Assembly (NCBI GenBank): GCA_001661245.1
Contig: KV454016.1
Location: forward strand, 433,381 to 497,380
Length of the DNA stretch: 64,000 nucleotides
Direction of reading: 5' to 3'
Source: Pachysolen tannophilus NRRL Y-2460
Lineage: Eukaryota
Below the pieces are notes generated by a model. The model ran no database searches and was not told the origin of the DNA. It saw only the letters and a program-made list of their open reading frames with translations. The translations under genes and the position numbers were made by a program. Below, piece after piece: positions 7,209-43,846 of this stretch. Each line of letters opens with the position of its first letter. Position 1 is the first letter of the stretch.

Positions 7209-8360
7209 TATAGTCACAACCTTCAACCTCAAATCAACCAAGTTCAAGTCACCCTCCCCACTATAGGAACAAATAAGTATATTTTTTTTTGTGTTTTTTT
7301 TTATTATTTTATAAATGAAGTTTCTCTTTGTTTATGACTCAAAACTAAAGAAAGAAAAAAAAAAAAAAAAAAGAAAAAAAAAATTAGAGCAAAAAAAAAA
7401 GCCGCATCGCATCTGGATCAAAAATTAGGGGTTTAAAAACAAAGGGGAAAATTAAAAGGTGAAGATGTTGTTGTTATTTTTTTATTACACATTTTATATG
7501 ATCATTAGCCAGATGCCAATGAGATGGCAATAATTTGTATGGTATTAAAGATGATAATGTTGTTGTTTGTTGCTACTACTACCACTACTACTACCGATTG
7601 ATTAAAAAAAAAAAATTGAAAATTTATCTTTTACTCTTTAACAACTTCCCTAAACAAAGAGCTAGTTCCTTATATTACATTGAGTACACAATAACATGAA
7701 CTACCAAGACTAAACTTGTTCAAAATACAATTAAGCAATCTCATTTCCATGATGGAATGAATCAATTGCTAAAAATCATTGAAATTTACAACAAGAAATT
7801 CTGATCAGCAAATACCAAGGGGGTTTATACGCTTAATACGAGAAACCACTTCAAGTTCGAGATTCAGTATCAAGATATGCACCAAATGACGGAATCAAAT
7901 TTATCAATTTAAACATTCAATGAATATCCTTTTTTTTGAAAAGTCCTGAATAGCGGTGGTAAAAGCCCAACTTTACATACCACACACTTACTCGCAGAAA
8001 GCTTAGCTTAGCTGTTGTTGTTAGCTATAAAGTAAGAAGAGAAAAAAAAAAGGCGCTGTATTAATGACACGTGTTTTACATTTACACACTTACACTCACT
8101 CTCACACACACACAGTGAATAAAAAGCGCTCATTGTTCCGGCTGGTCGATGCATCGTCTGCCATTTTGTGTTTTTTTTTATTTTTTTGAAATTTTTCAGC
8201 GTTATCTTGCACGACCATAATTTTCCACCATCGTTTTTGCACTGGAGTTTTTTTTTCTTTTAAAGGTTGGTTAACTACGATTTCTGGAAAGCGTATTATT
8301 GTTTGTCATAATATATATATATCTAAAGATTTTTTTTCTGGCCGTATGGTATATTAGAGG

Positions 8361-19152: not shown

Positions 19153-19671
19153 CCTCTCACCTCGTAGTCAAACTGTCAAAACCAAAACCACACAAGGGGG
19201 AGGAACCACTACACTAAACTAACCTAACTAACTAACTGACTGACTGACTGATTATTTCTAACCTACCTATGCTCTCTAGGTTGAAAAAGTTTTTAAAAAG
19301 TTTGAACTTTCTAACTATCATCATCGCTTCCACTAAAGTTTAGTACCGCTGAAAAATTCAAACGCTTCTGACCTTTTTAGTGCGTACTTATATTGCGCAT
19401 GAAAGCACACATTACAAACCTTGTGCGTATCCCAAATGCGGTATTAAACCTTCTATTGTTTTTTTTTGATTTTTTTCTTTTTTGAATTTGCATTTGCCCT
19501 TTTTCACGGTATTAATGATTTAAACCTGCCCTTGAAAAGCGAATGAGCACTTTTTTTTTTTTTTTTTTCAGCGATTCCTTTCCTAGGGGAAAAGTTGAGT
19601 TGAAATATATAAATTAAATCAATCATATATATGTACTGGTTGGAACTGCTTTAGATTTGAAGCAACATAAG

Positions 19672-20980
19672 ATGTCGGACGTAGAGGTAATTGGAAAAGG
19701 GGCACAACTGTCGAATCATGGGGTTATTAAGATAGGTACTAGAAAATCTGCTTTGGCAGTGGTACAAGCTGAGTCTGTTGCTGCTGAAATACAAACAAAG
19801 TTTCCTGGTTTAAGTACAAAGATTACAGCGTTATCAACTTTGGGTGATCAAATGCAACATAAACCTTTGTATTCCTTTGGTGGGAAGTCATTGTGGACAA
19901 AGGAGTTGGAAATATTACTTTTAGAAAGTGTTGGAGAGCATGATAAAATTGATTTGATTGTTCATTGTTTAAAAGATATGCCAACAAGTTTACCTGATGA
20001 ATTTGAATTGGGTTGTATTTTGGAAAGAGAAGGTATGTGTAAATTGAGATTCTTTTCTTTTGAAATAATTTTTTTTGAAATAATTTTTTTCTTGCTTTAT
20101 TCTTCATGATGATTTAAAAGATTTTTTCAGACGTTAGACTTCCTAATTTATATTGAGGATGAATCTTTATTCTGATCTTATATATTGCAAAGAAGAAAAT
20201 GAGGTTTTTTTTTTTTTTTTTTTTTTTTTTCTTTGAACAATTGATACTAACAAGAATTTTTTTTTTTTTATCTTTTACTTAGATCCAAGAGATGCATTGG
20301 TTATGAAAGCTGGTTCGAGTTACAAGTGTTTAGGCGATTTACCGGATGGTTCTGTAGTAGGTACCTCATCAGTTCGTCGTTCAGCACAATTATTAAAAAA
20401 TTATCCACGTTTACGTTTTAAATCTGTTAGAGGAAATATTCAAACAAGAATTTCTAAATTAGATGATCCAGATGCAGATTTTTCATGTTTATTACTTGCA
20501 GCTGCTGGATTAATAAGAATGAACTTACACAATAGAATTACACAATATCTAGACGAAGACAATATGCATTATGCTGTTGGACAAGGTGCATTAGCACTCG
20601 AAATTCGTAAAGGTGATGAATATATCCGTCAAATATGTTCCAAATTGAGACATGATGCAACAACATATTGTGGTCTTGCAGAACGTTCATTATTAAGATT
20701 TTTAGAAGGTGGATGTTCCCTCCCCATTGGATGTATTACTAATTACGATGAAAACAGTAAAATCTTACGCATGAAGGCAATGGTAGTTAGTTGTGATGGA
20801 ACTGAATCTGTAGAACAAAATTATAGTGCAAAAGTTGAAACTGATGATGATGCTGAAAAATTTGGTATTGCTATTGCTCAATTTTTGTTGGACAATGGTG
20901 CAAAGAAAATATTGGATGATATTAACTACGACAAGATTGAGGAAATAAAACAAGCTGGAATCACCAAGGGCACAAATTAA
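19672..20980 (+). CDS. HEM3: Porphobilinogen deaminase; two exons, join(19672..20032,20283..20980)
   Basis: IKIGTRKSALAVVQ, GGKSLWTKELE, VHCLKDMPT; splicing gives ILERE-DPRDALVMK; GTSSVRRSAQL, LEGGCSLPIG. Confidence 0.95.
20033..20282 (+). other. Spliceosomal intron of HEM3 (250 nt)
   Basis: GTATGT at 20033, TACTAAC 20245-20251, TAG 20280-20282; removal restores the reading frame. Confidence 0.93.
20102..20179 (+). ncRNA. Intronic box C/D snoRNA, snR58-like (predicted guide for 25S rRNA Cm663, S. cerevisiae numbering)
   Basis: Box C ATGATGA 20106-20112; guide AGACGTTAGACT 20129-20140 is complementary to 25S AGUCUAACGUCU; D'-like CCTA 20142-20145; C'-like TGAGGA 20154-20159; box D CTGA 20172-20175. 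Confidence 0.75.
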
Positions 20981-21194: not shown

Positions 21195-22286
21195 ATGACT
21201 GAGGCTATAGAAGAGCATCAAGTGGCAACTGTGCTGAAGACAAATGGAAATGGTGAAAGTGGTGGGAAAAACTTGTCAGTTTTGAAGAAGAAACATAAAC
21301 TTAAACCAGCAAGAGTTCAAGTAGACCCAGATTCTATAAATGATGATTCAAAACCACCACAGACAGGAACTGTTTTCAATATATGGTACCTGAAATGGTC
21401 TGGTGGGGACTCGAATAATAACCATCAACAGGTTCATTCACGTACACGTTGTAATATCAAGTTAGATTCCGGGTATACGAAAGCTGATAAACATCGTTTA
21501 AAAGAACCAATTTTTTGCTTATATTTTGCTAGAGGTTCATGTTGTATGGGTAAAAATTGTGAATACCTCCATAGACTTCCAACAGATGATGATTTGGTAT
21601 CTCAGACACATGACTGTTTTGGAAGAGAAAAATTTTCTGATTATAGGGATGATATGGGAGGAATAGGAAATTTCAATCGTATAAACAGAACTCTTTATAT
21701 TGGGAGAATTAATAATATGAGTGATCCAAACGTTGAATTGAAAATTAGTGAGAATTTTAAACAGTTTGGTGATATTGAGAAGATAAGAGTTATACATGAA
21801 AAGAATATTGCATTTGTTAGATACAAAAATGAATTAAATGCCCAATTTGCTAAAGAAGCAATGGCTCATCAATCATTAGATAGAGGAAATGAAAAGGAAT
21901 GTTTGAATGTTAGATGGGCCAATGAAGATCCTGATCCAGAACTGCAAAGAAGAGAGAAAAGGAAAAGAGAAGAAGATGCATTGAACACTGTTAAAAGATT
22001 GTTACTGAAGATAGAAGAAGATGATGAGAAATTAGCGGCAAAGAGAAATAAAAGAAACAATACTGTTATTATTGAAGAACCAGAAGAAATAGAAAAAAAT
22101 GAAGTACGAGAAACAAAATTATTGAAAGAATCGTCTGAGAAATCTAGTTTATTTACACACTCTTCTTTGGATATTTTGAAAAAAATGAATGTTGGTAGAA
22201 AGAATATAAATAATGTAAGTGATAATAATGATAAAAAAATTAAGAATTTGGTTAGCGGATATGGCAGTGATAGTGAGGAAGAATAA
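21195..22286 (+). CDS. CWC2: Pre-mRNA splicing factor Cwc2 (CCCH finger + RRM)
   Basis: KPARVQV, PPQTGTVFNIWY, FCLYFARGSCCMGKNCEYLHRLP, DCFGREKFSDYRDDMGGIG, AQFAKEAMAHQSL, LNVRWANEDPDP. Confidence 0.93.
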   Translation: MTEAIEEHQVATVLKTNGNGESGGKNLSVLKKKHKLKPARVQVDPDSINDDSKPPQTGTVFNIWYLKWSGGDSNNNHQQVHSRTRCNIKLDSGYTKADKHRLKEPIFCLYFARGSCCMGKNCEYLHRLPTDDDLVSQTHDCFGREKFSDYRDDMGGIGNFNRINRTLYIGRINNMSDPNVELKISENFKQFGDIEKIRVIHEKNIAFVRYKNELNAQFAKEAMAHQSLDRGNEKECLNVRWANEDPDPELQRREKRKREEDALNTVKRLLLKIEEDDEKLAAKRNKRNNTVIIEEPEEIEKNEVRETKLLKESSEKSSLFTHSSLDILKKMNVGRKNINNVSDNNDKKIKNLVSGYGSDSEEE

Positions 22287-22360
22287 ATAACATAAATACA
22301 TGTATTATTATTATTATTATTATCAAATCTATTTGAAATTATATAATATAATTTTAATTT

Positions 22361-24184
22361 TTAATTTTCAATATTTCTAAAATTCTTTTTTAGCACATAT
22401 TGATTTTTTTTCAATTCTTCAGGTATTCTAGTAAATTTCGAATTGGATAAAAACTTGTATAAATCGTATAATATATCTTTATCATCATCTTCATTTAAAA
22501 AAGTTATAGCCTTACCTTTCTTTCCAGCTCTACCAGTTCTACCAATCCTATGTGTATAATCTTCTACAGTTTTCGCCATTTGATAATTTATTACCAAAGA
22601 AACATTATTAATATCAATACCTCTACCTGCAACGTCAGTAGCAATCAAAATATCCTTTTCACCATTTTTAATTTGTTGAATTGCCTGTTCTCTTTTCTCT
22701 TGAGATTTAGAACCATGTAATGTTACAGATTTAAATCTTTCCTTCATTAATTTAAAATTCAAATCTTCACATGTTTTTTTATAATTAAGAAAAATTATTA
22801 TTGGTGGTTTGTATTTATTAGAACTCAATAATTGTAAAATCTTCAGGAATTTTTTATCATCAGATGATATGAACTCAACTTCTTGTGATATTGTATCCAG
22901 AGTTCTATTAACAGATACAAGACCGCCACCACTACCGCTACCGCCACCACGAATATTACTCTTGTCACCAATAACGACAATATTTGGTTTATATAAATAA
23001 TTTTTCGCAATTTTTTCAATCGAAGAAGACATTGTAGCTGTAAACATCATTGTAGTTCTTCTTGCTTCTCCAATTGATGGAGTTGATAAAGGTAACATTT
23101 CAAGGATTTTATTAACTTGTTCTTCAAAACCCATATCGATCATTCTATCTGCCTCATCCATCACCAAATATTTGCATTGGTTGAAGACCAATATCTTCCT
23201 TTCTATACAATCAATCAACCTTCCCGGCGTTGCTATTATTATTTCACTCCCATTTTTCAATTTATAAATTAATTCTTCAAATGAGTGACCACCAATAATG
23301 GAACAACAATTTAAATCATAACTATGATTTATTTCTTTCAATTTAATTAAAAATTTTTTAAATTCTTTTTCAATTTGTAAAGCCAACTCTCTAGTAGGCG
23401 CCAATACCAATACATAAGGTCCATCATTTTGAGTCATATCATCTAATGGTGGCAAATTTAATAAATTAGATAATATAGGTACTATAAATGAAAGGGTTTT
23501 ACCAGAACCTGTCTCAGCTATACCAATAATGTCCAAATTATCAATTGCTATTGGGATAGCTGCTCTTTGAATTGCAGTTGGCACTGTAAATTTCAAGCTA
23601 TGCAAAATTTCTAAAACCTCAAAAGGCATAGAACTTTCATCAAACGATCTTAATGGCGGTTTAACTTTACTATTACCACTACTATTACCACTATTGGACT
23701 TTATTGTTATATTGAAATCTTCCTTCAAAATTCTCCAATCCCGATCAGTCATCTCCTCTAAAGACTTCTCTGACCAGTGTCTTAGCTCACTATCATCACC
23801 ATGAGCACCAGCACCATTTTTCACATGACTAGCTCGATAAAGCTTCATCGATGGTTTTTTCATTACTATTGGATTATAATCCTGCAACGTATCATCTTCA
23901 GCATCCCAATCAAACTCAAACTTCCTACTGGGTTTCAGTAAAGCACGAGATGCACCATTAACAATCTCTCTCTCATGTTTTTCTTCTTTCTGCTCCTCTT
24001 CCTCCTCAAAAGTAGAGACTTTTATTTTCTTAATAGGTTTCTGTCTCTTCTCATCTTCCTGTTTTCTCTTTAAAGATTCCCTCTTCGGTTTGGACAAAAA
24101 CTTTGGCTTCGTGAAATCATCCCCACCACCCTTCTTAAGCCTCAACAACTCCTCCAATGACAAAGGCTCTTTCCTCAGCGACAT
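22361..24184 (-). CDS. PRP28: DEAD-box splicing helicase Prp28
   Basis: KFEFDWDAEDDT, HWSEKSLEEMTDRDWRILKEDFNI, AETGSGKT, DEADRMIDMGFE, HRIGRTGRAG; first ATG at 24184. Confidence 0.93.
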   Translation of the reverse strand: MSLRKEPLSLEELLRLKKGGGDDFTKPKFLSKPKRESLKRKQEDEKRQKPIKKIKVSTFEEEEEQKEEKHEREIVNGASRALLKPSRKFEFDWDAEDDTLQDYNPIVMKKPSMKLYRASHVKNGAGAHGDDSELRHWSEKSLEEMTDRDWRILKEDFNITIKSNSGNSSGNSKVKPPLRSFDESSMPFEVLEILHSLKFTVPTAIQRAAIPIAIDNLDIIGIAETGSGKTLSFIVPILSNLLNLPPLDDMTQNDGPYVLVLAPTRELALQIEKEFKKFLIKLKEINHSYDLNCCSIIGGHSFEELIYKLKNGSEIIIATPGRLIDCIERKILVFNQCKYLVMDEADRMIDMGFEEQVNKILEMLPLSTPSIGEARRTTMMFTATMSSSIEKIAKNYLYKPNIVVIGDKSNIRGGGSGSGGGLVSVNRTLDTISQEVEFISSDDKKFLKILQLLSSNKYKPPIIIFLNYKKTCEDLNFKLMKERFKSVTLHGSKSQEKREQAIQQIKNGEKDILIATDVAGRGIDINNVSLVINYQMAKTVEDYTHRIGRTGRAGKKGKAITFLNEDDDKDILYDLYKFLSNSKFTRIPEELKKNQYVLKKNFRNIEN

Positions 24185-24631
24185 ATCCAACAACAAAATT
24201 AGAAATATAATTACAAATCAGAACAATACCAATCTATCTATATCTTTAATACCTCTCCCATCCAGTAATGGAGGGCCCAAAAAACCCAAAAAAACCAAAA
24301 AAAGGCTAAAAACAAATGCATACTTTATTGGGAAGTCAAAAGTGTAATTACCCAATGGGGAAACTGTTCCCGTTTAGGAAATTGTTTTTTTTTTTTTGTA
24401 ACTTTTTCCGAATTTTGATTTTGTTTGAAATTTTCTTTGAGTTTTTCCCTCAATTTGTTAACAGCGGTTAAAGAGAAGAAGAATAATTAGTGTGTTTTGA
24501 TTAGGACAAAGGTTAAGACAACCAGAGTGGATATAGGTATATCTTCAATTGATAGGAATCAGATTGGTATAGGAAGTTGTCAGAGCAGCTAGTGATTTGA
24601 TAAAGTTTTGGCTTTGTTTATTCGTTAATTG

Positions 24632-24746
24632 GTATGTATTTATTAGTTATAGTAATAGATGGATTTTGGATTTTGAATTTGAAATCTACGTGTCTTCAAC
24701 AATTGGATATTAACAATTTTTAATTTCGTTTCTTTTAATATACTAG
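24632..24746 (+). other. Probable 5'-UTR intron of SEC26 (115 nt)
   Basis: GTATGT at 24632, branch-like TATTAAC 24708-24714, first downstream AG is TAG 24744-24746, 44 nt before the SEC26 ATG; no ATG seen in the ~130 nt before the donor. Confidence 0.5.
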
Positions 24747-24790
24747 TTCATCTATCATCACGGAATAAGATTTATAACATTTGAGGAAGA

Positions 24791-24822
24791 ATGGCAGACG
24801 TGGCATATACTTTGGTGAATGA
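24791..24822 (+). CDS. SEC26: SEC26 (beta-COP) coding exon 1, MADVAYTLVN(D), separated from its intron by an inversion
   Basis: ATG GCA GAC GTG GCA TAT ACT TTG GTG AAT GA; matches the beta-COP N-terminal AYTLV motif. Confidence 0.85.
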
Positions 24823-25860
24823 CTTTTTAAGTAATTTAACAACATCTTCAACATTTCTACTAGAAATTAATTGTAAAGTGATATCAATTGCTCTTCTACG
24901 AACTTCTAAATCTTGTGATGATAAAATTCTTAAAATTTCTAAAGTTAAATCGTCCAACATACCAGGATGATTCTTATGAAGTTCCAATACTCTTTCTAAA
25001 GTGATCAATTTAACATTATTATCTGGTTCTTTTATAGCCAATTCAATAAATTTAGAAGCTGCTGCTGTTACAGCAGTTGGTGAATGAGACAATATAGTCA
25101 ATGTTGTAGCTGCTTCATATATGACTGTATTTGATGTTGTATCCAACAAATCAGAGATAATACTTAAATATTGATTTCTTAAATCCGAATGTTCAACAGC
25201 ATCTTTACGAATGAATTCAACAAATGATAATTGTAATAAAGGATCTAAAGTGGCTAAAGATTGCAAATTATCTTGAATATAACGTAATGCGGATTCTCTT
25301 TGTAAGCTACCAAGACAAACAAAAGCATTTCTTTTGCAAGTTGAATCAGTTTCTACAGCCAAGAAATCAACTAATAAATCAGCAGCATCAAAGATTAAAT
25401 GTTCTGAAACTTTAAAAATGGAATAAATTGCAAATACAGCATTTTTACGAACATAAGCATGACGATGTTCTAAGCATAATCTTGCTGAAGCAACCAATGG
25501 TTCCAATAATTCTGGTTCTTTTAATTTTGATAAAAATCTTAAAGTATTTCCTCTAATATATTCATTTGGATGTTGTAAATCATGTTGAATTGCATTACAA
25601 ACCAAGATCATTTCTTGCTTTAATTTACCATCAGGTTCCAACTTGGGGCAAATTTCCCAATAAAAATATAATAATTTTTTCAATTCTTTATCTTTTGAAG
25701 GCATTACATAACGTATAACATACATCAATAACTCAGGCATCAAATTACCATTCAACATGGTAATTAAAATCCTTCTCATAGCATCAAGCTTATCTTCATC
25801 TTTGCCCTTTTCCAACAGTGATCTAAACTCTTGAACAGAAGTCTTGGATGAATTATTTGG
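24823..25860 (-). CDS. SEC26: SEC26 (beta-COP) residues ~12-357, inverted relative to the rest of the gene
   Basis: After the TAG acceptor: PNNSSKTSVQEFRS.LEKGKDEDK...HPNEYIRGNTLRFL...SRNVEDVVKLLKK; similarity ends at ~24823. Confidence 0.92.
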
Positions 25861-25965
25861 CTAAAAAAAAAAAAAAACAAAACAAACAAACAAATATGGA
25901 ATTGTTAGTATAATAAATTAAACAAAAAAAACAAACAAGCAAACAAAAACAACACAAATACATAC
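25861..25965 (-). other. SEC26 coding-region intron (105 nt) inside the inverted segment
   Basis: On the - strand: GTATGT from 25965, TACTAAC 25910-25904, TAG 25863-25861. Confidence 0.88.
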
Positions 25966-25966
25966 A

Positions 25967-27781
25967 GAATTACAGAAAACTTCAAATTCAAACGAAGAAA
26001 AATTTGCAGAATATAGACAAATCTTAATTTCTGCAATTCATTCTTGTGCTATTAGATTTGCTGAAGTTGCTGCAAGTGTTGTTGATCTCTTATTAGATTT
26101 TATGGGTGAATTAAATACAACTGCAGCAGTAGATGTTATTACATTTGTTAAAGAAGTTGTTGAAAAATTCCCAGCTTTACGTACTTCAATTATCCATAGA
26201 TTGATCACTGCATTATCTAAAGTTAAAAGTGGTAAAGTTTATAGAGGATCGTTATGGATTCTTGGTGAATATTGTCTTGATGAAAAAGATATCTTGGATG
26301 CTTGGAACCATATTAGATCATCTATTGGAGAAATTCCAATCTTAGCAAGTGAAAAGAAAGCTTTACAAGATGCTGCTACAGGAACTGGATCTGATGAAAA
26401 AGAATCAAAGACAAATGGTGCTGTTTCTCATAAACCAGTTGTTCTTCCTGATGGTACATATGCCACTGAGAATGCAATGACTGTTGATACTGCAACTAGT
26501 AATGAGGCAAAATCTGAAAGACCACCAATTCGTCTGTTAATTTTGGAAGGTGATTATTATCTTGGTGCGGTATTATCTTCAACTTTAGTTAAATTAGTCT
26601 TGAGATTTGAAGAAATAACACAAAAATCAAAGGTTAACGTTTTAAATGCATTAAAAGCTGAAGCTATGTTGATCATGGTATCTATATTAAGAGTAGGTGA
26701 TTCATCATTTGTTAAACAAAAGATTGATGAGGACTCTTCTGAAAGAATTTATTGTTGTATCAATTTCTTGTCAGAAGATAACAGTTCAACAGATTCTAAA
26801 GAATTTAAATTAATTGAATCTGCCTTCTTAGAATATACAAGAGAAGCATTTAAGAAACAATTAGAAATTGAAGATAAAAAGAAAGCCAAGCAAGATTCTG
26901 ATGAATTGGAAAGAAATGCAGAAAAAGTTGATGATTCGATTGTTTTCAGACAATTATCAAAAGAAGATATTAAAGATGTAGTTGATGACGAGCTATTGGC
27001 AGATCAAAACGTGGTGGCAACTACCAAGAAAGAAGATTTATCATCAAGACTTAATCATATTGTTCAATTAACAGGATTTTCTGATCCTGTTTATGCTGAA
27101 GCATATGTAAAAGTCCATCAATTTGATGTGGTTTTAGAAGTGTTAGTTGTCAATCAAACAACTGTTACTTTACGTAATCTCTCTGTAGAATTTTCAACTT
27201 TAGGAGATTTGAAAGTCATTGATAAACCAACCACTTCAAACATTGGACCTCATGGTTTCCATAGGGTTTCCACAACAATAAAAGTTACATCAGCCGATAC
27301 AGGTGTCATATTTGGAAATATTGTTTATGATGGCCAACATGCAAACGAGTCTACCATTGTCATCTTAAACGATGTTCATGTTGATATCATGGATTATATC
27401 AAACCAGCATATTGTAAAGAAAATCAATTCCGTAAAATGTGGAATGAATTTGAATGGGAGAACAAGATTACTATCAAGTCCACTTTGCTTACATTACAAA
27501 GTTATCTCGATCTGTTGTTGAAAGGAACAAATATGCAATGTTTAACGCCTGGTGCTATAATTGGTGGAGACGAATGTCAATTCTTATCTGCTAATTTATA
27601 TTCTAAATCTTCTTTTGGAGAAGATGCTTTAGCGAACTTGTGTATTGAGAAGAAAAATGATGGCCCAATTGTTGGTCATGTTAGAATCAGATCTAAGGGA
27701 CAAGGATTGGCATTGAGTTTAGGTGATAGAGTTGCTTCTGTCGCTAGAAAGACAAATAAAAGTGTTACTGCTAGTGTTTGA
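25967..27781 (+). CDS. SEC26: SEC26 (beta-COP) C-terminal ~604 residues
   Basis: Open frame from 25967: ELQKTSNSNEEKFAEYRQILISAIHSCAIRFAEVAASVVDLLLDFMGELN...LPDGTYATE...QLTGFSDPVYAEAY...RIRSKGQGLALSLGDRV. Confidence 0.93.
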   Translation, partial: ELQKTSNSNEEKFAEYRQILISAIHSCAIRFAEVAASVVDLLLDFMGELNTTAAVDVITFVKEVVEKFPALRTSIIHRLITALSKVKSGKVYRGSLWILGEYCLDEKDILDAWNHIRSSIGEIPILASEKKALQDAATGTGSDEKESKTNGAVSHKPVVLPDGTYATENAMTVDTATSNEAKSERPPIRLLILEGDYYLGAVLSSTLVKLVLRFEEITQKSKVNVLNALKAEAMLIMVSILRVGDSSFVKQKIDEDSSERIYCCINFLSEDNSSTDSKEFKLIESAFLEYTREAFKKQLEIEDKKKAKQDSDELERNAEKVDDSIVFRQLSKEDIKDVVDDELLADQNVVATTKKEDLSSRLNHIVQLTGFSDPVYAEAYVKVHQFDVVLEVLVVNQTTVTLRNLSVEFSTLGDLKVIDKPTTSNIGPHGFHRVSTTIKVTSADTGVIFGNIVYDGQHANESTIVILNDVHVDIMDYIKPAYCKENQFRKMWNEFEWENKITIKSTLLTLQSYLDLLLKGTNMQCLTPGAIIGGDECQFLSANLYSKSSFGEDALANLCIEKKNDGPIVGHVRIRSKGQGLALSLGDRVASVARKTNKSVTASV

Positions 27782-28129
27782 AGTTTATTTATGAAAAAGA
27801 CTTTTTTTTTTGTTCTGAAAGTTTTTTTATTTTTGTTTTTTGATTGATTAGTCTTGTTATATTTACTGCTTTTTTATTCTCTTTTTTTTTATACTAATTT
27901 TACTTTCAATTAAGAAGTATTCCATTTATTTTTTTTTTTTTTTTTTTTATATATTTTTTATTTTATTTTGTTTTGTTTTTCTTGATTTAAAAAGAAAAAC
28001 TATCATCACGGTATGAAAGTGAATGTTTTCGAATAGAAAGAAATATACAAAAGTTTATGTCAAATATTAAAAGAAAAATTATTTACAATGTATATATATA
28101 TATATATCTATTTAAGTACTATTTGGAGA

Positions 28130-29050
28130 TTATAGTAAATATTTTGGGATTCTTTCACTTCCAATGAATGGTAATCCATAAGCACTTAGCACTGTTCTAG
28201 CTTCAGCATCAATTTGGGCACTTGTATGGAAAAGTATATCCATACCAAAAGTTTTTGGCCAAAGATCTTGATTTGCTTCAATTTCAGGGAAAAATCTTAC
28301 TTCATTTGGAGTCAATCCAAATGAGATATTACCATACCTATCACCTGCTCTATTACTAATTCCTTTAAATTCTCTTATTTTAGGTAATACTAATTCTGTT
28401 AATGTAGATAAAAATTGAGTCATTTCTCTACCTTTTAATTCCACTTTAGCACCCATTTGCATACCAGGTCTAAGTTTCCAAGTTGGTACATTTGTCTTGG
28501 CATAAATTGGACGTGGTTTAACACCAGTAATTTGTTGTAATTGTAACATTGCTGAAATACTAAATCCTGTATTTTCCTTTGCTTCTTTAACAAATGAACT
28601 AAGAGTAATTCTTTCAATATTTGGAATATTTTTCCATGTTCTTGCTTTAACCGTTGGTGATGGAACTTTTTCACCACGAGGATGTCTATCAGGTCTATTA
28701 ATATGATATGGAGATGAATAATCCCATTCTCTACGCTTATTACCAACAACATCTTCTTGATCATGCATATAATTAATTAAAAGTAAATCTGATGCCAAAG
28801 TATTATCATAATGTTCAACAACACGATCCTGGTGCGTCGTCGTAGGCTTAAACTTTGGAGATCTTATATCATTTGGCTCCAACTTCAATTCAGGATACTT
28901 TGGAGATAATAACTGTTTAATAATCTTAATACGATGATGAACAGGTTTAACCATAGCACATCCAACCCTATATTGAATAGAACTCGATGAAAATGAACGG
29001 CATGATACCGTTATTCCTCCATACACAGATGACTGCAAACCAACAAACAT
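28130..29050 (-). CDS. MRPL7: Mitochondrial ribosomal protein uL5m
   Basis: [58 protein letters not shown]; adjacent to SEC26 as in S. cerevisiae. Confidence 0.92.
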
Positions 29051-29605
29051 ATTCTCTCTCTCCTACTTGCTCTTCAAAACCTAATCACAAATATCACAAA
29101 TATCACCACTTGTTTAATTATATCTTTCCAATTCTTGTCGTCGGTTTCCTTGGTCCAATTTTGGATGAAAAATTTTTGACGGACAAAAAGGAAGTCACGT
29201 GATTTTTGACCCGAATTTTTTTGGTATGTTTTGAATAAAATTTCAAAAAAAAACAATAATGAAGGACATAAATCTATTGAAATAGTTTTAATTATATTTC
29301 AAGTCAGTTTAGTTTCCATTTATTTGGGTATTGACGGGTCTTTTTTTTTCTTTTAGTGTTGTTGTGTTGCAGAGGAAGCGGTGTTGGAAAATTTTTTTAG
29401 GTTTTAACCATTTTTTTTTTTCATATTTGTTGCTTTTAAGAAGGAAGAATTGAAAGAAAAGAAAAGTAGAAGTAGAAGAAGAAAAAAAAAAAGAAGCGCT
29501 GGTTTGAAACTGACACTAAAAAATATTGCAGTTTTAAGTTGTACCCTGAAAATAGATATATAGCTATTGTTTGAAGAATAGGTTTTTTTCGAGGTTTATT
29601 GGAAG

Positions 29606-30475
29606 ATGGAATATTTAGAAGCATTTAGATTGAAGTATCAGTATGATGATCCTTTGGCTGATTTAAGAGTTCCATTTGTTGAAGAATATTTCAAACCGTA
29701 TCTTCCGGAAGCTTTGGGAAATGGGTTAAACCATATTCATGAAATTGTATTTGTGATATTGCTTTATCATGCAATTTTTGTTATTGCAAGAATTGTATTT
29801 AAGATTTTATGGCCAAATTATAAGATCTCACAAAATTTACTTAATGAATTTGGTATTCATGTTGTATCATTTATTCAATCAATAATTATCTTGATCATGT
29901 TAATACCTGCTCTTCAAAATCCATATTTAGAAAATGATCGTGTCTTTGGTTATACTCCATATTCTGGACTATTAACATCTTTTGCCGTTGGTTATTTCAT
30001 ATGGGATGCTATAATTTCAATTTTATATTCAGCATTTGGGTTTTTCCTTCATGGTCTTACTTCATCGATTGTTTTCGGTATTGGGTTAACACCTTATATC
30101 ATGTATTATTCACCAATTTTCTTACTTTTCGAATTATCAAATCCTTTTTTAAATCTTAGATGGTTTGGTATTAAATTTCCAGGTAGTTTTAGCGCTATTT
30201 TTCAATTGATCAATAACATAATTTTAATCACAATATTTTTCTTTATGAGAATAGGTTGGGGTTGGTATCAAGTTTTCAGATTGGCCTTGGATTTTTATCA
30301 AGTAAGAAACGATCCAAGGTTCAACTTAACCTACAGCATAATCATATTAGTTTGCAATTTCATCTTAGACATTTTAAATGTATATTGGTTTTATAGAATG
30401 GTTTTAGTTGCAATTAGAATCTTGAAACAAATGTTTTGCTCAAAGAAAGAAACTGAGTCCAAGAAGAAAATCTAA
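29606..30475 (+). CDS. TLC (TRAM/LAG1/CLN8) domain membrane protein, Tda4-like
   Basis: IHVVSFIQS, DRVFGYTPY, GYFIWD, FLLFELSNPFLNLRWF, LNVYWFYRM. Confidence 0.85.
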   Translation: MEYLEAFRLKYQYDDPLADLRVPFVEEYFKPYLPEALGNGLNHIHEIVFVILLYHAIFVIARIVFKILWPNYKISQNLLNEFGIHVVSFIQSIIILIMLIPALQNPYLENDRVFGYTPYSGLLTSFAVGYFIWDAIISILYSAFGFFLHGLTSSIVFGIGLTPYIMYYSPIFLLFELSNPFLNLRWFGIKFPGSFSAIFQLINNIILITIFFFMRIGWGWYQVFRLALDFYQVRNDPRFNLTYSIIILVCNFILDILNVYWFYRMVLVAIRILKQMFCSKKETESKKKI

Positions 30476-30813
30476 TTAAAAAACTTAAAACATCTATTCC
30501 ATTCTATTCCATTCTAGACAGAAATTACAATCCTATATATATATATACATTGTGATATGCATCTGTGGCACGGAGTTATCTAGATCTGCTTTCCTAATTA
30601 TATAGACGTTATCGTTGTCTTAAAATTTATATCTATATTTTTTTTTTTTTGAATTATTTGAATTTTTGTCTTTATATAATTTATTTACATTTTTGATTAC
30701 TTGACTTTTGATCAGACTTGAATCTTTGTGAATTTCCTACCGAAGATAAAATATATAATATATATATTTATATATAGATATAATTATTTATTTATACGCA
30801 TCATCATATTGAC

Positions 30814-31854
30814 TTATGGATCCATTTCTTTAAAACTCTCAATTTTCGAATGTTGTAACCAATCTTCACCCAATATTTTTAATCTAATACAACCATTGAA
30901 TTTTTGATCTTTAACCAGCTCTAACCAGTCACTAATTATTAAGTTTAAAATTTTTCTCAGTTGTAAACCGTACAGTTGTAAAAACTCTTTACAACAAGAT
31001 TCCCACCAGTTGCACACTATAAAGAAATGGACATTTTGTAAACGATCTAATGGTAAGTTCAACAATCTTGATAAAAAAAGCCAACTATATGAAATAGGTA
31101 ATGGGTGAGGTTTATCGTTAGCAACATCTTTAATAGATAGTCTTGTCATTACCGAATATAGTGTCACAATACCACCAATTCTCTCGTTATATTTAGTTTC
31201 TTCTTCCCATTTATTATCTCTCCTTTTCCAACCCATCCTGAGTCTTCCTTCTTCAGTGTCAATGGAACATGTATAACCAATCAAGTACGGACATTTCTTA
31301 ACAAATCTTGCTATAAGATAATATTTCAAATCTGGGAATAAAATTAATAAATTAAGTGCCAATTTAGCTAAAGGTATTGAATGTTGAGGTTTAACAATAA
31401 TTTCCACCTCTGCTTGAGATATAATTTCTTTAGCTATAAAATTCAATATGAAATTATATGCTAATTCATTTAATTGTGATTTTACTTCTGAAATTAATTG
31501 ATAAATTTCATTTGTTATTTCGTTTAATTTTGAACCAGAATTAGTCAACTGTCCAAACTTTGGATTTATCTTTCTCTTATATTTATTTGTCAGTTGTTTT
31601 AAAGCCTTATCTGCAAATAATGGTTCTTTTACTGTCTCTTTAATCTGTATTATATCTTGTTTATATTTGAAAAAATCTTTTTCAATACCACTAAAATTTG
31701 TTATTCCAATATTTCCCTTGGCTTCTTCTTCTTTTCTTTTCAACTCATCTTGTTGTTTCTTTATTTTTAACTCTTCTTCTTTTCTTTTCCTTGCCAATTC
31801 TTGTTGTTTAAGTAATTCCAGTTTCTTCCTTTGTTCTTCTTCTTGTTCAAGTTT
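30814..31854 (-). CDS. GLE1: GLE1 (mRNA export factor) C-terminal ~346 residues, lacking its own start in this orientation
   Basis: KLEQEEEQRKK...ITNF...KRKINPKFGQLTNS...NFIAKEIISQAEVE...ARFVKKCPYLIGYTCSIDTEEGRLRMGWKR. Confidence 0.92.
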   Translation of the reverse strand, partial: KLEQEEEQRKKLELLKQQELARKRKEEELKIKKQQDELKRKEEEAKGNIGITNFSGIEKDFFKYKQDIIQIKETVKEPLFADKALKQLTNKYKRKINPKFGQLTNSGSKLNEITNEIYQLISEVKSQLNELAYNFILNFIAKEIISQAEVEIIVKPQHSIPLAKLALNLLILFPDLKYYLIARFVKKCPYLIGYTCSIDTEEGRLRMGWKRRDNKWEEETKYNERIGGIVTLYSVMTRLSIKDVANDKPHPLPISYSWLFLSRLLNLPLDRLQNVHFFIVCNWWESCCKEFLQLYGLQLRKILNLIISDWLELVKDQKFNGCIRLKILGEDWLQHSKIESFKEMDP

Positions 31855-31862
31855 TCACTCAT
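31855..31862 (-). CDS. FMN1: Displaced FMN1 start (ATG AGT GA) at the edge of the inverted segment
   Basis: ATG at 31862-31860 on - is out of frame with GLE1 but in frame with FMN1 after re-inversion (MSEKQESADKVRP). Confidence 0.75.
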
Positions 31863-32068
31863 AGTTCCAATGTTTCACTAAATCTCTTGTCGTCTTGATC
31901 TTGGTGATGATAATTTTGTATGTGTATAAAAAATGATTGAAAACTCAAAAAGCCAAAAAAAAAAGAAAACATTTATAGTTATATTTATATATTATATAAA
32001 AGATTTATATAAATATCTTTAAATTGTTTTATAATAGAGAGGATAGATTCAGTTTCCATTAGAGGATC

Positions 32069-32563
32069 ATGAGGGTGTCTTTGGATGATATCTATAGTGG
32101 GAAGAATAGGTCAGAGATAAAGTATGGTAATCCAAGAGATGAATTTGAAGCGATTTTACTGGATGATAAAATAAGAGAGCTGTATTTATTAGCTATTGGA
32201 AATAGACAAGATAATATAACATCATCATCTCAGGTATTAGACACATTGACTTCTTTGGATCATGATCCTGCAAAGATTTTAAATGATTTGATAGGTGGTT
32301 GGGTGTCAAATTATAAACAAAAGATAATACAGCAAAATGATTTAGAGAATTCTTTTAAAAATTTGAAGATTAAAGAAATTAAAGATAGAAAAGATAATGT
32401 TGGTAAAATGTTTATGGATGATTTATCAAATTTTATCAAGGATCAAGATAATGAGATTGATAGTGTAATATTGAGGATTCAAGAGGAAAAAAAAATGAAG
32501 GAATTACAACGTCAAAAATTAATACTGGAGAAAGAACAAAAGAAAAAGGAAGAAGAAAGAAAG
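32069..32563 (+). CDS. GLE1: GLE1 N-terminal ~165 residues, inverted
   Basis: MRVSLDDIY...; ends in coiled-coil EEKKMKELQRQK...KKKEEERK, which continues in frame into KLEQEEEQRKK of the - strand fragment after re-inversion. Confidence 0.8.
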
Positions 32564-33161
32564 GAAGCAGGAGTCAGCCGATAAGGTGAGACCTCTTTCT
32601 TATCCAGATAAACCAATTTCTCCTCGTTTCCCGATATTGGTGAGACCTACTGCTATAATATCTGGTTTTGGTAGAGGATCCTCAGAATTAGGAATACCAA
32701 CGGCCAATGTTGAATCAAATGAAGTCTTGAATAGTTTGGAGACTGGTGTTTACTTTGGGTATTGTAAGCTCTTTAAACCTGAGGGTAAGAACCATTCCGA
32801 GATTATTGAATCCAAACTGATCAATGATAGAACTAGGAAAATTGAATTCAATTATGGCCTAGATTTGCCATCAAATGAATTAAATCAAGTTTACCTGATG
32901 TCGATGTCATTAGGTTATAACCCATTTTACGGGAATTTGATTGAAAAAGCTGTGGAGATCCATATTATCCATGATTTTAAAGGTAAATCATTTTATGGTT
33001 GTAATATCTCATTTGTGATCTTGGGATACTTAAGACCGGAATTGAATTTTAGCAGTTTACAAGTTTTAATCGATGAAATCAATAAGGACGTAGAAATAAC
33101 AAAACAGTTATGCTCTAAAGAAGGATACCTCAGTTATAAACACTTGTTTGATGATATATAG
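32564..33161 (+). CDS. FMN1: Riboflavin kinase, lacking its ATG in this orientation
   Basis: IISGFGRGSSELGIPTANV, ETGVYFGY, MSLGYNPFYGN, EIHIIHDF...FYG, LGYLRPELNF. Confidence 0.92.
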
Positions 33162-33351
33162 TAGTAGTAGTTGTTGCTGTTTTTGTTGTTGTTATCGTTG
33201 TTGATGTTGTTGATGTTGTTGATGTTGTTGTCTTCTTATCTCTTTTAAGTATAAAATGACTGCTTTTTTTTTTCTTCTTCTTTAATAGAAACTTGCTTTC
33301 AAAAATATATTTTTAGTTAATTTGCCATTTTGATATTATATTCCATTATAG

Positions 33352-35523
33352 ATGTTCAATATCAAGATAGCATCACTAGTGACGCGAGTGTTGGTTTTGG
33401 TATCCGGTGTGAGTCTGAGTGGGTTAACTATTGATGATGATGTTGAGAACGACGTTTGCAAATTGCCAATACCTTTTAAAGATGAGTACTGTCAGTATAT
33501 TGTAGATAATTGCAATTTACGTATTTTCAATTATTCTAAACTTTACTATTGTTCATCATATGATCATGGAATGATATTATTGATGTTATTTTCATTATTG
33601 ATTGTCTTTTTCATAACTTTGGGTATAATAACTTCAAATTTCTTATCACCAAATTTAGCACTGATATCATCGATTTTACAATTAAATGAGAGAATAGCTG
33701 GATTAACATTATTATCCTTGGGAAATGGTGCTCCAGATATTTTTAGTACTTATCAGGCCATGTCATCCAATTCAACTTCTTTAGCAATTGGAGAGTTGAT
33801 TGGAAGTTGTAATTTTGTCACATGCTTCATTGTTGGGTTGATGGGTATAACCAATCCATTTAAAGTACATGGACTGGAATTTTTAAAAGATTTGATCTTC
33901 TTTATGTTACTTTTACTCATGAGTTTTACTTTTTTACAAGATGGGAAATTAACATTACTTGAATGTGGATTCATGTGTTGGGTTTATATTTGCTATATTG
34001 TATTTCTTGTGGTTTACAATCTTAAAAAAAATGCAGAATTACAATTATATGATGATGAAGAACAATCTATTAGAAATTCACCTCAGAATCCAACAATGAG
34101 ATTATATTCTCCTTCAAGTAATAATGTGGATGAATCAAATAATCTAGAATTGATTGGAAAATTGAATCGATACTTGAAATTTGGTAATCTTCCAAGACTT
34201 TCAGTTTTTGATTCTTTAAAATTCTTGAATATGGAACAAGAATCTAACAACATTACCGATGCAGATTTTGGAGAGAATGTTTTAAACAATAATGATGCCA
34301 ACATTGCTTATGATGGCAATGATGGCGATGATGGCAACAATAACACTCAAGACCATGAGGAGCTTCATCAAGAGTCTTCTACTAAAAATAATAATCTATT
34401 AGCCCTGCCTAAAGCTACAAATCCAGCTTTAAGCAGGATAACTGAGCAATTGCTATTATCTAGAAGCACCAGCTACAATTCCATTCAAAACACGATTGAT
34501 GACCTTGAAACTGATGGAAGATCACCTGTTTCGCCAATTTCGCACATTTCTGTGCCCCATATGGCGGTATACACTCAAACAAATGATGAAGGCAATGATG
34601 ATATTTCATCAATTAACAAGGAAGGACAAATATGTTATTCTCTTGGAGATTATTTATTTCCTGAGTTGAATTCTTTCAAATCAAAAAAATTGTATGAGAT
34701 AATTCTTGCATTAGTCAGTACTCCTATAATATTTCTCTTGAGTTTGTTTATGCCAGTTTATCATGAACCAGAAGAAATGAATTTACATGAAAAATCATTG
34801 AAGAAAAAAGAATTTGAATTGAAATTAAAACTATTGAATTTGAATTTAACTCTATTACCATTTTTAATCAATGATTTTTCAATTTTACAGAGCTTGATCA
34901 CTGATTTCACTATAAGTGAATCAGACCGAAAAATTTTGACTTCATCACTAATAATACTGTCACTCAATTTAATTGGATATTTTATTTTCAAAAATTTTGA
35001 AATTTATCATCGTATTTATAAGCATGTATTACCAATATTAGGGTTTATATCATCATTATTTTTTATAACTATTATGACTTCGCAAATCATTAAAATTTTG
35101 AAAAATTTGGGTCTTGTTTTTGAAATTAACGAATCCTTATTAGGACTTACTGTTCTTTCGTTGGGAAACTCGATAGGTGATTTGATCTCTAACTTGACTT
35201 TGTGCAGTTTAGGTTTCCAACTAACATGTCTTAATGCATGCTTTGGTTCTCCGTTGATGTATATGTTATTAGGAGTTGGTTTGAATGGACTCATAATCAT
35301 AACATCGAATTATTATCAAGGTGATCATGATAATTTGTTTATAGAATTTGAGGTCAATGATAATCTCAATGTCAGTGCCATTGGATTGTTAGTTATATTA
35401 GTTTTTTATATTATTGTCATTCCATTTAATAATTGGAATTTTGGAAGAAAAATAGGAATGGTTGGTGTTTCTTGGTGGGTTTTAATTACTTTAGTCAATA
35501 TTGGAATGGAAGGGTATACTTAG
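33352..35523 (+). CDS. Ca2+/cation exchanger (CCX family; YDL206W/Ecm27-like)
   Basis: alpha-1 repeat AGLTLLSLGNGAPDIFSTYQAM and alpha-2 repeat LGLTVLSLGNSIGDLISN...ACFGSPL; many hydrophobic segments. Confidence 0.88.
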   Translation: MFNIKIASLVTRVLVLVSGVSLSGLTIDDDVENDVCKLPIPFKDEYCQYIVDNCNLRIFNYSKLYYCSSYDHGMILLMLFSLLIVFFITLGIITSNFLSPNLALISSILQLNERIAGLTLLSLGNGAPDIFSTYQAMSSNSTSLAIGELIGSCNFVTCFIVGLMGITNPFKVHGLEFLKDLIFFMLLLLMSFTFLQDGKLTLLECGFMCWVYICYIVFLVVYNLKKNAELQLYDDEEQSIRNSPQNPTMRLYSPSSNNVDESNNLELIGKLNRYLKFGNLPRLSVFDSLKFLNMEQESNNITDADFGENVLNNNDANIAYDGNDGDDGNNNTQDHEELHQESSTKNNNLLALPKATNPALSRITEQLLLSRSTSYNSIQNTIDDLETDGRSPVSPISHISVPHMAVYTQTNDEGNDDISSINKEGQICYSLGDYLFPELNSFKSKKLYEIILALVSTPIIFLLSLFMPVYHEPEEMNLHEKSLKKKEFELKLKLLNLNLTLLPFLINDFSILQSLITDFTISESDRKILTSSLIILSLNLIGYFIFKNFEIYHRIYKHVLPILGFISSLFFITIMTSQIIKILKNLGLVFEINESLLGLTVLSLGNSIGDLISNLTLCSLGFQLTCLNACFGSPLMYMLLGVGLNGLIIITSNYYQGDHDNLFIEFEVNDNLNVSAIGLLVILVFYIIVIPFNNWNFGRKIGMVGVSWWVLITLVNIGMEGYT

Positions 35524-40827: not shown

Positions 40828-43293
40828 TTATTTCTTGATCTCCTCTCCTATTAAAGTGGAAGGTGTGCTTTCTCTTGTGCGACTATCTTCAGATTGTGCG
40901 TATAATTTTCTACTTCTCCCCGCCCCAGTGTCGGTAGCTGCAGCTGCTGCTGCATTAGCATTAGCAGTATCAGCGGTAGTAGTAGTAGTAGTAGTAGTAG
41001 GAGTAGTAGCGGTCCCACCAAGGTCCACCACCCCAACAATTTGAAAATCGCTATTATCTATTGTTCTGGATTTTGGATTTTTCAATTTTAATTTCTTCTT
41101 TTCGTATCGTATTTGTTGCTGTCGTTCATAATTTAATTCTTTTTCTGTAATTATTTTTAATAAATCATCTTTGCTCAGAATTAAATCAGTCATAAGTTGA
41201 TTGGCAAAATTGATGTCACCTTTGATTAGCTGATCATTTTCATTTTTAATATAAGCTATATGCGGTCGTAAAATTAAATGCATAAAGGGAATGTATCCTA
41301 TTTTGCCCTCTAAGTTTAATAACATTTCCCTTTCTTTACCTAAAGTTGAAATATCGTTTATAATAGCATATAGACTAGATAAACTCACTCTTGATAAATC
41401 ATTGCTAATCCTAGTAATTATTAATTTTCTTCTTCTTAATTCATCTTGTTCTTTGTATAATTGTTTTAATGATTCATATGAAATACTTGGTATGATAGAA
41501 TCAGGTAATTCTAATAACCATATTTTCAAAATTTGAATCAATTCTTTTTCATCAAGTTCAATTTTTGTCATATATTTTTTTTTCATAAATTCTAATGATT
41601 CAAAATTTAAACAATTGAGCCATAATTCTTTATCTTTAATTCGTGATAACGTATCATATAGAAAAAATGGTAATGATTTTTCATGAACTTCAACTTTGGC
41701 AAATTCTGATTTCTTTCTATAAGTAGATAAATCAGATCCAAATAATGGTGGGAAATCTTCATCGAAATTTGTTATTTCTCTTTCAGTAGCTCCTAAAATT
41801 TTAATTCTTGAATAAATTGAATTATATAATGGATTCACTGAATAAATCCCTCCATTTGTATTATTTTTGATAACAACTTGTGTCAATTCTTTTAAATGAT
41901 TCTCTAAATTATCTTGATTATCAACAAGTTGATTCATATCTTGTAATATTTTTAAATTTGTCAAATGATCTTGTTGTAAAATTTTAGTCAATTTGTTAAA
42001 AACATTGTATATGAATTCAACTCTACTATATTCTTTTTCTTCAATTTCTTTGTTAATTTGGAAAATATTTGTTTCCAAGTTTGATCTTAATTCACTCCAT
42101 TCAATATATAAATCTTTTGCCCTTTCAGATAATAATTTTTCATTTTCCTCCAAAGATTGAATATTGTTTCGATTAGAAGTTGGAATATAAGTTGATAAAG
42201 ATGATAAAAATTTAGGCAGCAGCTGTAAATCTTCTTCTAATTTCTCAATTTTTACACCTTGGGGATCAAAATTCATAATAAATTTATATAAATCAGTATA
42301 TTCAAACCATAAAGATTCATCATCACTTTTAAATTTACCAAATTTTTTAGTCAAGTTACCTATTTGTAAAAATTTGTAATCTAATAATGATTGACCAATT
42401 TTCTCAATTTGAAACCTACTCAATGCTTGATTTTCTTTATTAATACATCCATTAACAGAACCAAAATTAATTTTTCTACTAGGAATGATATTTTTCAATA
42501 ACCAATTTTTAAAATCTACAACATTAAACGTTTCAACACTAGTTGTTACAAATGGGAACTTGCTGATAGTTTTAGGTAACGTGGAATACATGTGATTCAA
42601 AAACCCACATAATTGGTAATGATCGTTAAAAGTTAAAGTACCATCACCTAAAATCAATGGAAATTCAATTGGATAACCCTCTGTAGATTTGAAATTATCC
42701 AAACTTGTAGTACTAAATTTTGAAGTAATGAAATTAACAGAATTAAAAACAGATGAACCAGAAGGTGTCCTGCTTCTCTGCAAATTTATACTTTGAGAAT
42801 TGGGCACAGAACCTATCTTGAATTCATGCAATTTATTAAGATTACTGATATACTGTTGCTCTAATTTTTTCAACTCTTTTGATTTTAAATTATATGCATC
42901 TAAATTACCTAATAATTTTTGCTTACAATCATCAATAAAATTCTTGTATGATTCAATGAATTGATTTAAAGGTACTATTAACTTGATTTGTAATATTTTA
43001 GTTAAAACTAACTTTGAATCAAAATGATCTTGTAATTTACCCAAAATTGAATTAAACAAGGAATTTAAATCTTCTTCAAATAAATTTTTCTCAGAATTTT
43101 TAATAATCAAATCATGACCATTATCATAACTCCTAGTAACACAATTTTTTTCAAGCATTTTCAAAAAATTATTTTGGAAAAAAATTAAACTTGAATAATT
43201 ATGATCCAATAATGAGATGCTATTCTTAATACCCAATTCATAATTCAATGACCAACATCTATTACTTAAATGGATGGCTATATCATCCACCAT
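40828..43293 (-). CDS. Divergent F-BAR/DEP/RhoGAP protein (Rgd2/Rgd3-like)
   Basis: N-terminal CWSLNYELGI (F-BAR start), DEP-like EKIGQSLLDYKFL, LFGSDL and LKIWLLELPDSIIPS RhoGAP signature. Confidence 0.65.
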   Translation of the reverse strand: MVDDIAIHLSNRCWSLNYELGIKNSISLLDHNYSSLIFFQNNFLKMLEKNCVTRSYDNGHDLIIKNSEKNLFEEDLNSLFNSILGKLQDHFDSKLVLTKILQIKLIVPLNQFIESYKNFIDDCKQKLLGNLDAYNLKSKELKKLEQQYISNLNKLHEFKIGSVPNSQSINLQRSRTPSGSSVFNSVNFITSKFSTTSLDNFKSTEGYPIEFPLILGDGTLTFNDHYQLCGFLNHMYSTLPKTISKFPFVTTSVETFNVVDFKNWLLKNIIPSRKINFGSVNGCINKENQALSRFQIEKIGQSLLDYKFLQIGNLTKKFGKFKSDDESLWFEYTDLYKFIMNFDPQGVKIEKLEEDLQLLPKFLSSLSTYIPTSNRNNIQSLEENEKLLSERAKDLYIEWSELRSNLETNIFQINKEIEEKEYSRVEFIYNVFNKLTKILQQDHLTNLKILQDMNQLVDNQDNLENHLKELTQVVIKNNTNGGIYSVNPLYNSIYSRIKILGATEREITNFDEDFPPLFGSDLSTYRKKSEFAKVEVHEKSLPFFLYDTLSRIKDKELWLNCLNFESLEFMKKKYMTKIELDEKELIQILKIWLLELPDSIIPSISYESLKQLYKEQDELRRRKLIITRISNDLSRVSLSSLYAIINDISTLGKEREMLLNLEGKIGYIPFMHLILRPHIAYIKNENDQLIKGDINFANQLMTDLILSKDDLLKIITEKELNYERQQQIRYEKKKLKLKNPKSRTIDNSDFQIVGVVDLGGTATTPTTTTTTTTADTANANAAAAAATDTGAGRSRKLYAQSEDSRTRESTPSTLIGEEIKK

Positions 43294-43846
43294 TTTTCAC
43301 TGTTTCATAGAAGTTTTCAAAACATATATAAAAAATTTACCAAAACAAAAATGATAAATACAATTTATCTACTTACTGGTGGTACAAAACATGACGGTAT
43401 TAAATAAAAATCAATAGTACCTTTTATAAAGAAAGATAAAGACACTAAACTTGATGAAGTATTAAATGCATGTTTCTCGAAAATGCACACGACTGTACAA
43501 TATGTCCGAACCCTACAAAATACTAGTCAAACTAGTCAAAACCAATTGATATTAATGATATTAATAATATGTTGAACATTATATATATATGTTTTATATA
43601 AGTGTTTTTTTGATTTTTTTATTTTGTTGCCTTTCAATGTATGGAAATGTTAAGTGAAAGTAAACGTTAACAAAAATTAATTTTGAAGAGGCAAAATAGT
43701 AATAAAAAAAAAAAAAAAAAAAATTAAATGAAAAAAATGGTTATGTTGAATCCTGAATCCTAATCCTGATATATGAATTACAAAAAAAAAAATTTCCGGC
43801 TTAAATTTATGTTATGTACAAGAGCATAAAATGCGCATTAAAGAAC

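Follow-up and report, generated by a model that had tools for sequence, protein, structure and literature searches.

The window analysed here is a stretch of 64,000 nucleotides (nt) from strain NRRL Y-2460 of the yeast Pachysolen tannophilus (GenBank assembly GCA_001661245.1, contig KV454016.1, positions 433,381 to 497,380 of the forward strand; all positions below are those of the window). Around positions 24823 to 32563 it contains SEC26, the gene for beta-COP, together with GLE1 and the riboflavin kinase gene FMN1, and each of these three genes is split across the two DNA strands by one of two short inverted segments. The inverted form is found in the public record, while the un-inverted form is found in read-derived contigs from two studies. 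Both inversions are very probably orientation errors in the public reference assembly and not features of the yeast DNA, the chromosome itself being colinear.

SEC26, GLE1, FMN1 and the two inverted segments

The locus is made up of the following features.

24791..24822, plus strand: exon 1 of SEC26 from the ATG on, 32 of its 33 nt (MADVAYTLVN and 2 nt of the codon for D), from letters read directly
24823..25966, minus strand: inverted segment 1, with the final exon 1 nt (25966), the intron (25965-25861) and the exon 2 codons up to ...VVKLLKK (25860-24823)
25861..25965, minus strand: SEC26 intron of 105 nt (GTATGT, TACTAAC, TAG) after codon 11, inside inverted segment 1
25967..27781, plus strand: rest of SEC26 from ELQKTSNS... 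through the stop codon (ORFs, Pfam, homologue match)
30814..31854, minus strand: C-terminal 346 codons of GLE1 and the stop codon, with the GLE1 domain (Pfam GLE1, 1.6e-88)
31855..32563: inverted segment 2, with the first 8 nt of FMN1, the GLE1-FMN1 intergenic region and GLE1 codons 1-165
31855-31862, in segment 2: first 8 nt of FMN1, reverse complement of ATGAGTGA
31863-32068, in segment 2: divergent GLE1-FMN1 intergenic region
32069-32563, in segment 2, plus strand in the window: GLE1 codons 1-165
32564..33161, plus strand: rest of FMN1 (riboflavin kinase), from coding nt 9 through the stop codon (Pfam Flavokinase, 1.4e-26)

Inversion 1 (window 24823-25966) comprises 1144 base pairs (bp) and was delimited with open reading frames (ORFs), junction letters and a script; it is exact and lossless, and it splits SEC26. 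The plus-strand frame of this gene opens at position 24791 and breaks at 24823, and its continuation on the minus strand ends with the residues ...VEDVVKLLKK. The Pfam profiles are divided in the same way. Positions 2-345 of the Adaptin_N profile fall on the minus-strand ORF 24775-25860, and positions 337-476 fall on the plus-strand ORF 25922-27778, which also carries Coatamer_beta_C and the appendage platform. Flipping the segment in silico yields a SEC26 protein of 961 amino acids (aa) with no internal stop codon, identical at 684 of 944 positions to its orthologue from Kuraishia capsulata (P0003) and at 704 of 924 positions to a second orthologue (P0002). Neither alignment has a gap within ±30 columns of the restored junction, and the N-terminus (MADVAYTLVND-PNNSSK) aligns without gaps to that of the K. 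capsulata protein (MTDVAYTLISE-PNTAGK).

The original prediction placed one end of each inversion close to a start codon. The position given for SEC26, +32, is correct, but it had been overlooked that this breakpoint adjoins the 5' splice site of the 105-nt intron and lies only 1 nt in front of it. The pattern of intron signals is by itself not rare (two observed versus a shuffle mean of 1.6); the intron is supported because its removal joins exons 1 and 2 in frame and gapless relative to the K. capsulata orthologue. Once segment 1 is flipped, GTATGT, TACTAAC and TAG are the signals of an ordinary cis intron of SEC26. As part of the assembly-error reading, the true SEC26 gene would in all probability consist of a 33-nt exon 1, the 105-nt intron and a single long exon 2. 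Splicing as an explanation of the inversions themselves was considered and rejected: the signals in segment 1 belong to that ordinary intron, and the junction letters of inversion 2 hold no splice-like signals.

Inversion 2 (window 31855-32563, 709 bp) is likewise exact and lossless, and it splits two genes. Breakage of FMN1 had been recognised in the original prediction, and GLE1 has to be added to it. The in silico flip gives a GLE1 protein of 511 aa and an FMN1 gene that is open from its own ATG (MSEKQESADK...). On the real chromosome, GLE1 and FMN1 are, again as part of the assembly-error reading, most likely intact divergent neighbours. For both segments, the junction letters and the flip agree with what had been predicted, namely two precise and lossless inversions of about 0.7-1.1 kilobases (kb), and un-inverting them restores the three genes without loss or gain of a base and colinear with their orthologues.

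Public gene models and read-derived contigs

The best match of the C-terminal part of SEC26 is a protein of 605 aa from P. tannophilus NRRL Y-2460 in the NCBI collection (PACTADRAFT_4179, here P0001), to which it is 100% identical. This model starts with MELL-KTSNS, and MELL can be read only from the inverted arrangement, where it is encoded by a spurious first exon.

25896-25907, plus strand: first exon MELL of P0001, which is antisense to the inverted intron and is spliced to position 25976 over 25908-25975

On the window sequence, the 4 codons of this exon and the 601 codons that follow add up to 605 aa, the size listed for P0001. The public SEC26 model therefore lacks the real 105-nt intron and instead carries an invented four-codon exon taken from its antisense strand. 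A second public model (P0121) is identical to the 346-aa GLE1 fragment and starts exactly at the breakpoint; P0001 and P0121 both lie on a contig of 1,128,252 nt. Since both models reflect the inverted arrangement, the inversions were already in the public record. No second SEC26 copy from P. tannophilus was present among the 120 best homologue matches. The model also shows which genetic code was applied, as CTG is translated as alanine in P0001 (e.g., in PPIRALILEG, window 26500-26560), i.e., according to NCBI table 26. Table 26 is the known nuclear code of P. tannophilus and is appropriate for all translations of the window.

These models bear directly on the possibility, raised in the original prediction, that the sequence had been manipulated. 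The inversions are suspiciously clean, being lossless, blunt and repeat-free, as might be expected if the window had been altered after its download, e.g., as a test sequence, while the public record was colinear. However, the first exon of P0001 exists only in the inverted arrangement and accounts, with its 4 + 601 codons, for the 605 aa of the model, and P0121, on a contig of the same size of 1,128,252 nt, starts at the GLE1 breakpoint. Manipulation is thereby excluded, and we accord an altered window practically no credence.

We then compared the window with public sequencing data. Seven public runs matched, no RNA run among them, and five of these contain 0.96 of the sampled words of window positions 24000-33500. 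Four of these five were compared over positions 22000-35000; X1, X2 and X4 share a sample and a study, and X5 belongs to a second sample and study. The run data are Logan contigs (31-mer), and statements on read pieces cover the pieces listed, beyond which there are 180 further pieces. Over these 13 kb, each of the four runs shows no base difference from the window, yet each has both segments in the opposite orientation. The only other differences are six insertions of 1-2 nt in A/T homopolymer runs of 10-13 nt (positions 24384, 27801, 29481, 30637, 31954 and 33263, all outside the listed ORFs), at which the window is always shorter than all four runs. Such homopolymer undercalls suggest that the consensus of the reference was left unpolished.

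Inversion 2 is covered in each run by a single contig (7864-9416 nt). With contiguous record coordinates, it reads 27991/29482..31854 on the minus strand, 31855..32563 on the plus strand and 32564..35000 on the minus strand, so that joints between opposite strands are found at 31854/32563 and 31855/32564 in all four runs (side 255, both 0). At inversion 1, every run has a contig of 3043-3058 nt in which 25967..27916 (minus strand) directly adjoins 24823..25852 (plus strand); the joint between 25967 and 24823, found in all four runs, corresponds to the colinear KK|ELQ junction of SEC26. At the other end, in each of the four runs the match of the contig that carries 22000/24369..24822 ends precisely at 24822, and its 110 further letters mismatch the window from 24823 onward. 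These letters would fit a continuation into the reverse-complemented intron. Because 25853-25966, the stretch with the intron, was passed over as a repeat in the contig comparison, we infer the junction between exon 1 and the intron; the 110-letter overhang and a 35-letter overhang would overlap by 31 nt if they stood in colinear order.

Every piece among those listed ends exactly at the breakpoints and then continues on the other strand, and none of them bridges any of the four junctions of the window. As far as the contigs show, reads that span these junctions are absent, which is the finding that the original prediction had itself named as refuting a biological inversion system.

A different account of the same data would be that the two inversions are real structural variants of one clone, i.e., that the DNA used for the reference came from a subclone with two repeat-independent inversions, e.g., through end-joining of paired breaks, that is absent from the compared runs. 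The breakpoints are blunt, with 0 nt of homology, a result that end-joining could produce; the public record does contain the inverted form; and contigs may miss a population that is different or minor. Against this stand the colinear form as the only one in 4 of 4 runs from two studies that are otherwise identical over 13 kb, the missing second P. tannophilus SEC26 copy among the 120 best matches, and the need for two independent events within 8 kb that break three genes. SEC26, GLE1 and FMN1 are all essential in Saccharomyces cerevisiae, and a haploid culture carrying both inversions should therefore not grow. We consider real clonal variants to be very unlikely. It is just as unlikely that the reference stems from type-strain cells, be it a clone or a subpopulation, with two real, repeat-independent and blunt inversions that arose within 8 kb (e.g., from clustered double-strand breaks and end-joining) and were tolerated, for instance via a second genome copy; if it were so, a local burst of breaks and mis-repair would be indicated.

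Breakpoint sequences and the search for an inversion system

The possibility that had attracted attention to this locus was an undescribed gene-scrambling or inversion system. We examined the breakpoints for inverted matches by comparing ±40 nt around the paired breakpoints with 2000 random position pairs of equal spacing. The longest exact inverted match is 5 nt for inversion 1 and 6 nt for inversion 2, and 99% and 85% of the random pairs, respectively, do as well or better. Breakpoint ambiguity (microhomology) is 0 nt, outward and inward, at both inversions. Flanking inverted repeats were not found at either inversion, the repeat search giving only low-complexity matches of K/E codons; the inversions are thus repeat-free, as originally described. 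Nor are there ciliate-type pointer repeats, the number of shared nt being 0 at both junctions of each segment. Three of the four ends, counted in the true order, are located within or next to low-complexity sequence (two in runs of K/E codons, one at the T/G-rich start of the SEC26 intron). A shared breakpoint motif was considered and set aside, since three low-complexity ends out of n = 4 in an AT-rich genome are no evidence of a motif.

Recombinase, integrase and transposase families were searched for with Pfam among the 35 ORFs of at least 150 aa in the 64-kb window, and none of the 35 matches them, which bears out the earlier statement that no recombinase is recognisable in the window. Pfam on the same ORFs revealed no other window gene split across strands.

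Programmed or reversible inversion, with segments that flip in the cell, or gene-scrambling with repair of the messages at the RNA level, would be in keeping with the fact that both events are of the same size class and close together, and that one end of each lies near a start codon. In addition, P. tannophilus has a real invertible MAT region (PMC6692504). However, flanking inverted repeats such as those of MAT are absent, no recombinase was found among the 35 ORFs of the window, and splice-like signals are lacking at the junctions of inversion 2. Moreover, one unbroken contig runs through both breakpoints of inversion 2 in a single orientation in 4 of 4 runs. With only the colinear form in all four runs and with neither inverted repeats nor pointers nor a recombinase, the proposal of an undescribed system is not supported; we regard it as highly improbable.

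Pfam matches were obtained for 32 of the 35 ORFs, while 3 of the 35 were without. Those without a match at E<=1e-5 include 40831-43296 (minus strand, 822 aa) and 6594-7331 (minus strand, 246 aa). The porphobilinogen deaminase gene HEM3 (19618-20977, plus strand) is present as two ORFs on the same strand that cover Pfam profile positions 1-96 and 96-206; it is split by an ordinary intron of 250 nt at about 20033-20282 with GTATGT, TACTAAC and a long T run.

Probable assembly orientation errors and known types of inversion

The more conservative explanation in the original prediction, an assembly or scaffolding error, is the one that the read-derived contigs of the two studies support. Under this explanation, the 1144- and 709-bp pieces would have been written in reverse during assembly and joined to their neighbours without a gap marker. 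Low-complexity sequence, which in the true order is found at or next to three of the four edges of the pieces, is a place at which contigs of an overlap assembler may stop, and some step of the assembly software would then have flipped the pieces. The gene caller would subsequently have run on the wrong sequence and produced the truncated SEC26 model, and the protein collection would have been left with a fragment of GLE1 whose first residue lies at the break. The homopolymer undercalls speak for this explanation, and so does the status of the assembly: in PMC13232491 (2026), GCA_001661245.1 (Riley et al., 2016) is listed as scaffold-level and 12.6 Mb in size, its contig N50 falling in the 10^4 bin, its scaffold N50 in the 10^6 bin.

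Several observations weigh against orientation errors in the assembly. The window contains 0 N, so that the breakpoints bear no mark of a contig join. A graph-based misassembly usually needs inverted repeats at its ends, and here there are none and the microhomology is 0 nt. At inversion 2, 31-mer contigs cross both breakpoints unbroken, which means that neither of them is a repeat boundary at k = 31. In the contigs, the left junction of inversion 1 is deduced and not displayed directly. Finally, the contigs of the four runs hold one orientation only, in data that lose rare variants, and since contigs drop such variants, a minority inverted form may be present in the runs.

The closest known thing to the two segments is an inversion-type misassembly, i.e., a mis-oriented contig within a scaffold. 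As in such cases, a short wrong-strand piece stands between correct neighbours, gene models are split by it, and independent sequence data contradict it; the difference is that the joins here carry no N or other mark, are base-exact and enclose very small pieces (0.7-1.1 kb). For scaffolded assemblies, bioRxiv 10.1101/064352 describes mis-oriented contigs in scaffolds as well as small inversions that distinguish assemblies of the same genome; its case is the Hi-C scaffolding of a mammal and not the method of the P. tannophilus assembly. In the excerpts of the literature on small inversions and misassembly in draft assemblies that we consulted, only general cases were found.

The MAT flip/flop of P. 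tannophilus resembles the present case in that it is a DNA inversion in the same species. It comprises 8 kb with 2-kb flanking inverted repeats and with MATa and MATalpha at its ends, and both of its orientations were shown experimentally (excerpt of PMC6692504, citing Riley et al., 2016). In contrast, the two segments described here have no inverted repeats, break housekeeping genes and occur in a single orientation in the contigs. The passages of PMC6692504 that we consulted do not deal with the present loci.

With inversions in the gene order of yeasts, the two segments share the kilobase scale and the setting on budding-yeast chromosomes. Evolutionary inversions generally end between genes and leave the genes intact, whereas the two inversions here cut through the coding sequences of three genes and do not occur in the read-derived contigs. 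A 'handful' of small inversions separates Saccharomyces eubayanus from S. cerevisiae, as a passage in PMC4651232 states.

What the public record displays at this locus is very probably not a biological feature, the yeast DNA being colinear. Our data amount to a curation warning, in that three gene models in this reference would be wrong. SEC26 is truncated to 605 of its 961 residues and is preceded by an invented first exon, FMN1 loses its start codon and its first 8 nt, and GLE1 is present in the protein collection only as a fragment of 346 of 511 residues. P. tannophilus is widely used and is the founding example of the CUG = Ala code, and the 64 kb analysed here show at least two silent inversions in its reference, both local. 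Errors of this kind spread into orthologue tables, into calls of gene presence and absence and into intron catalogues. If the rate found here held genome-wide, many more genes of P. tannophilus would be affected, and a genome-wide check of the assembly against reads is therefore warranted.

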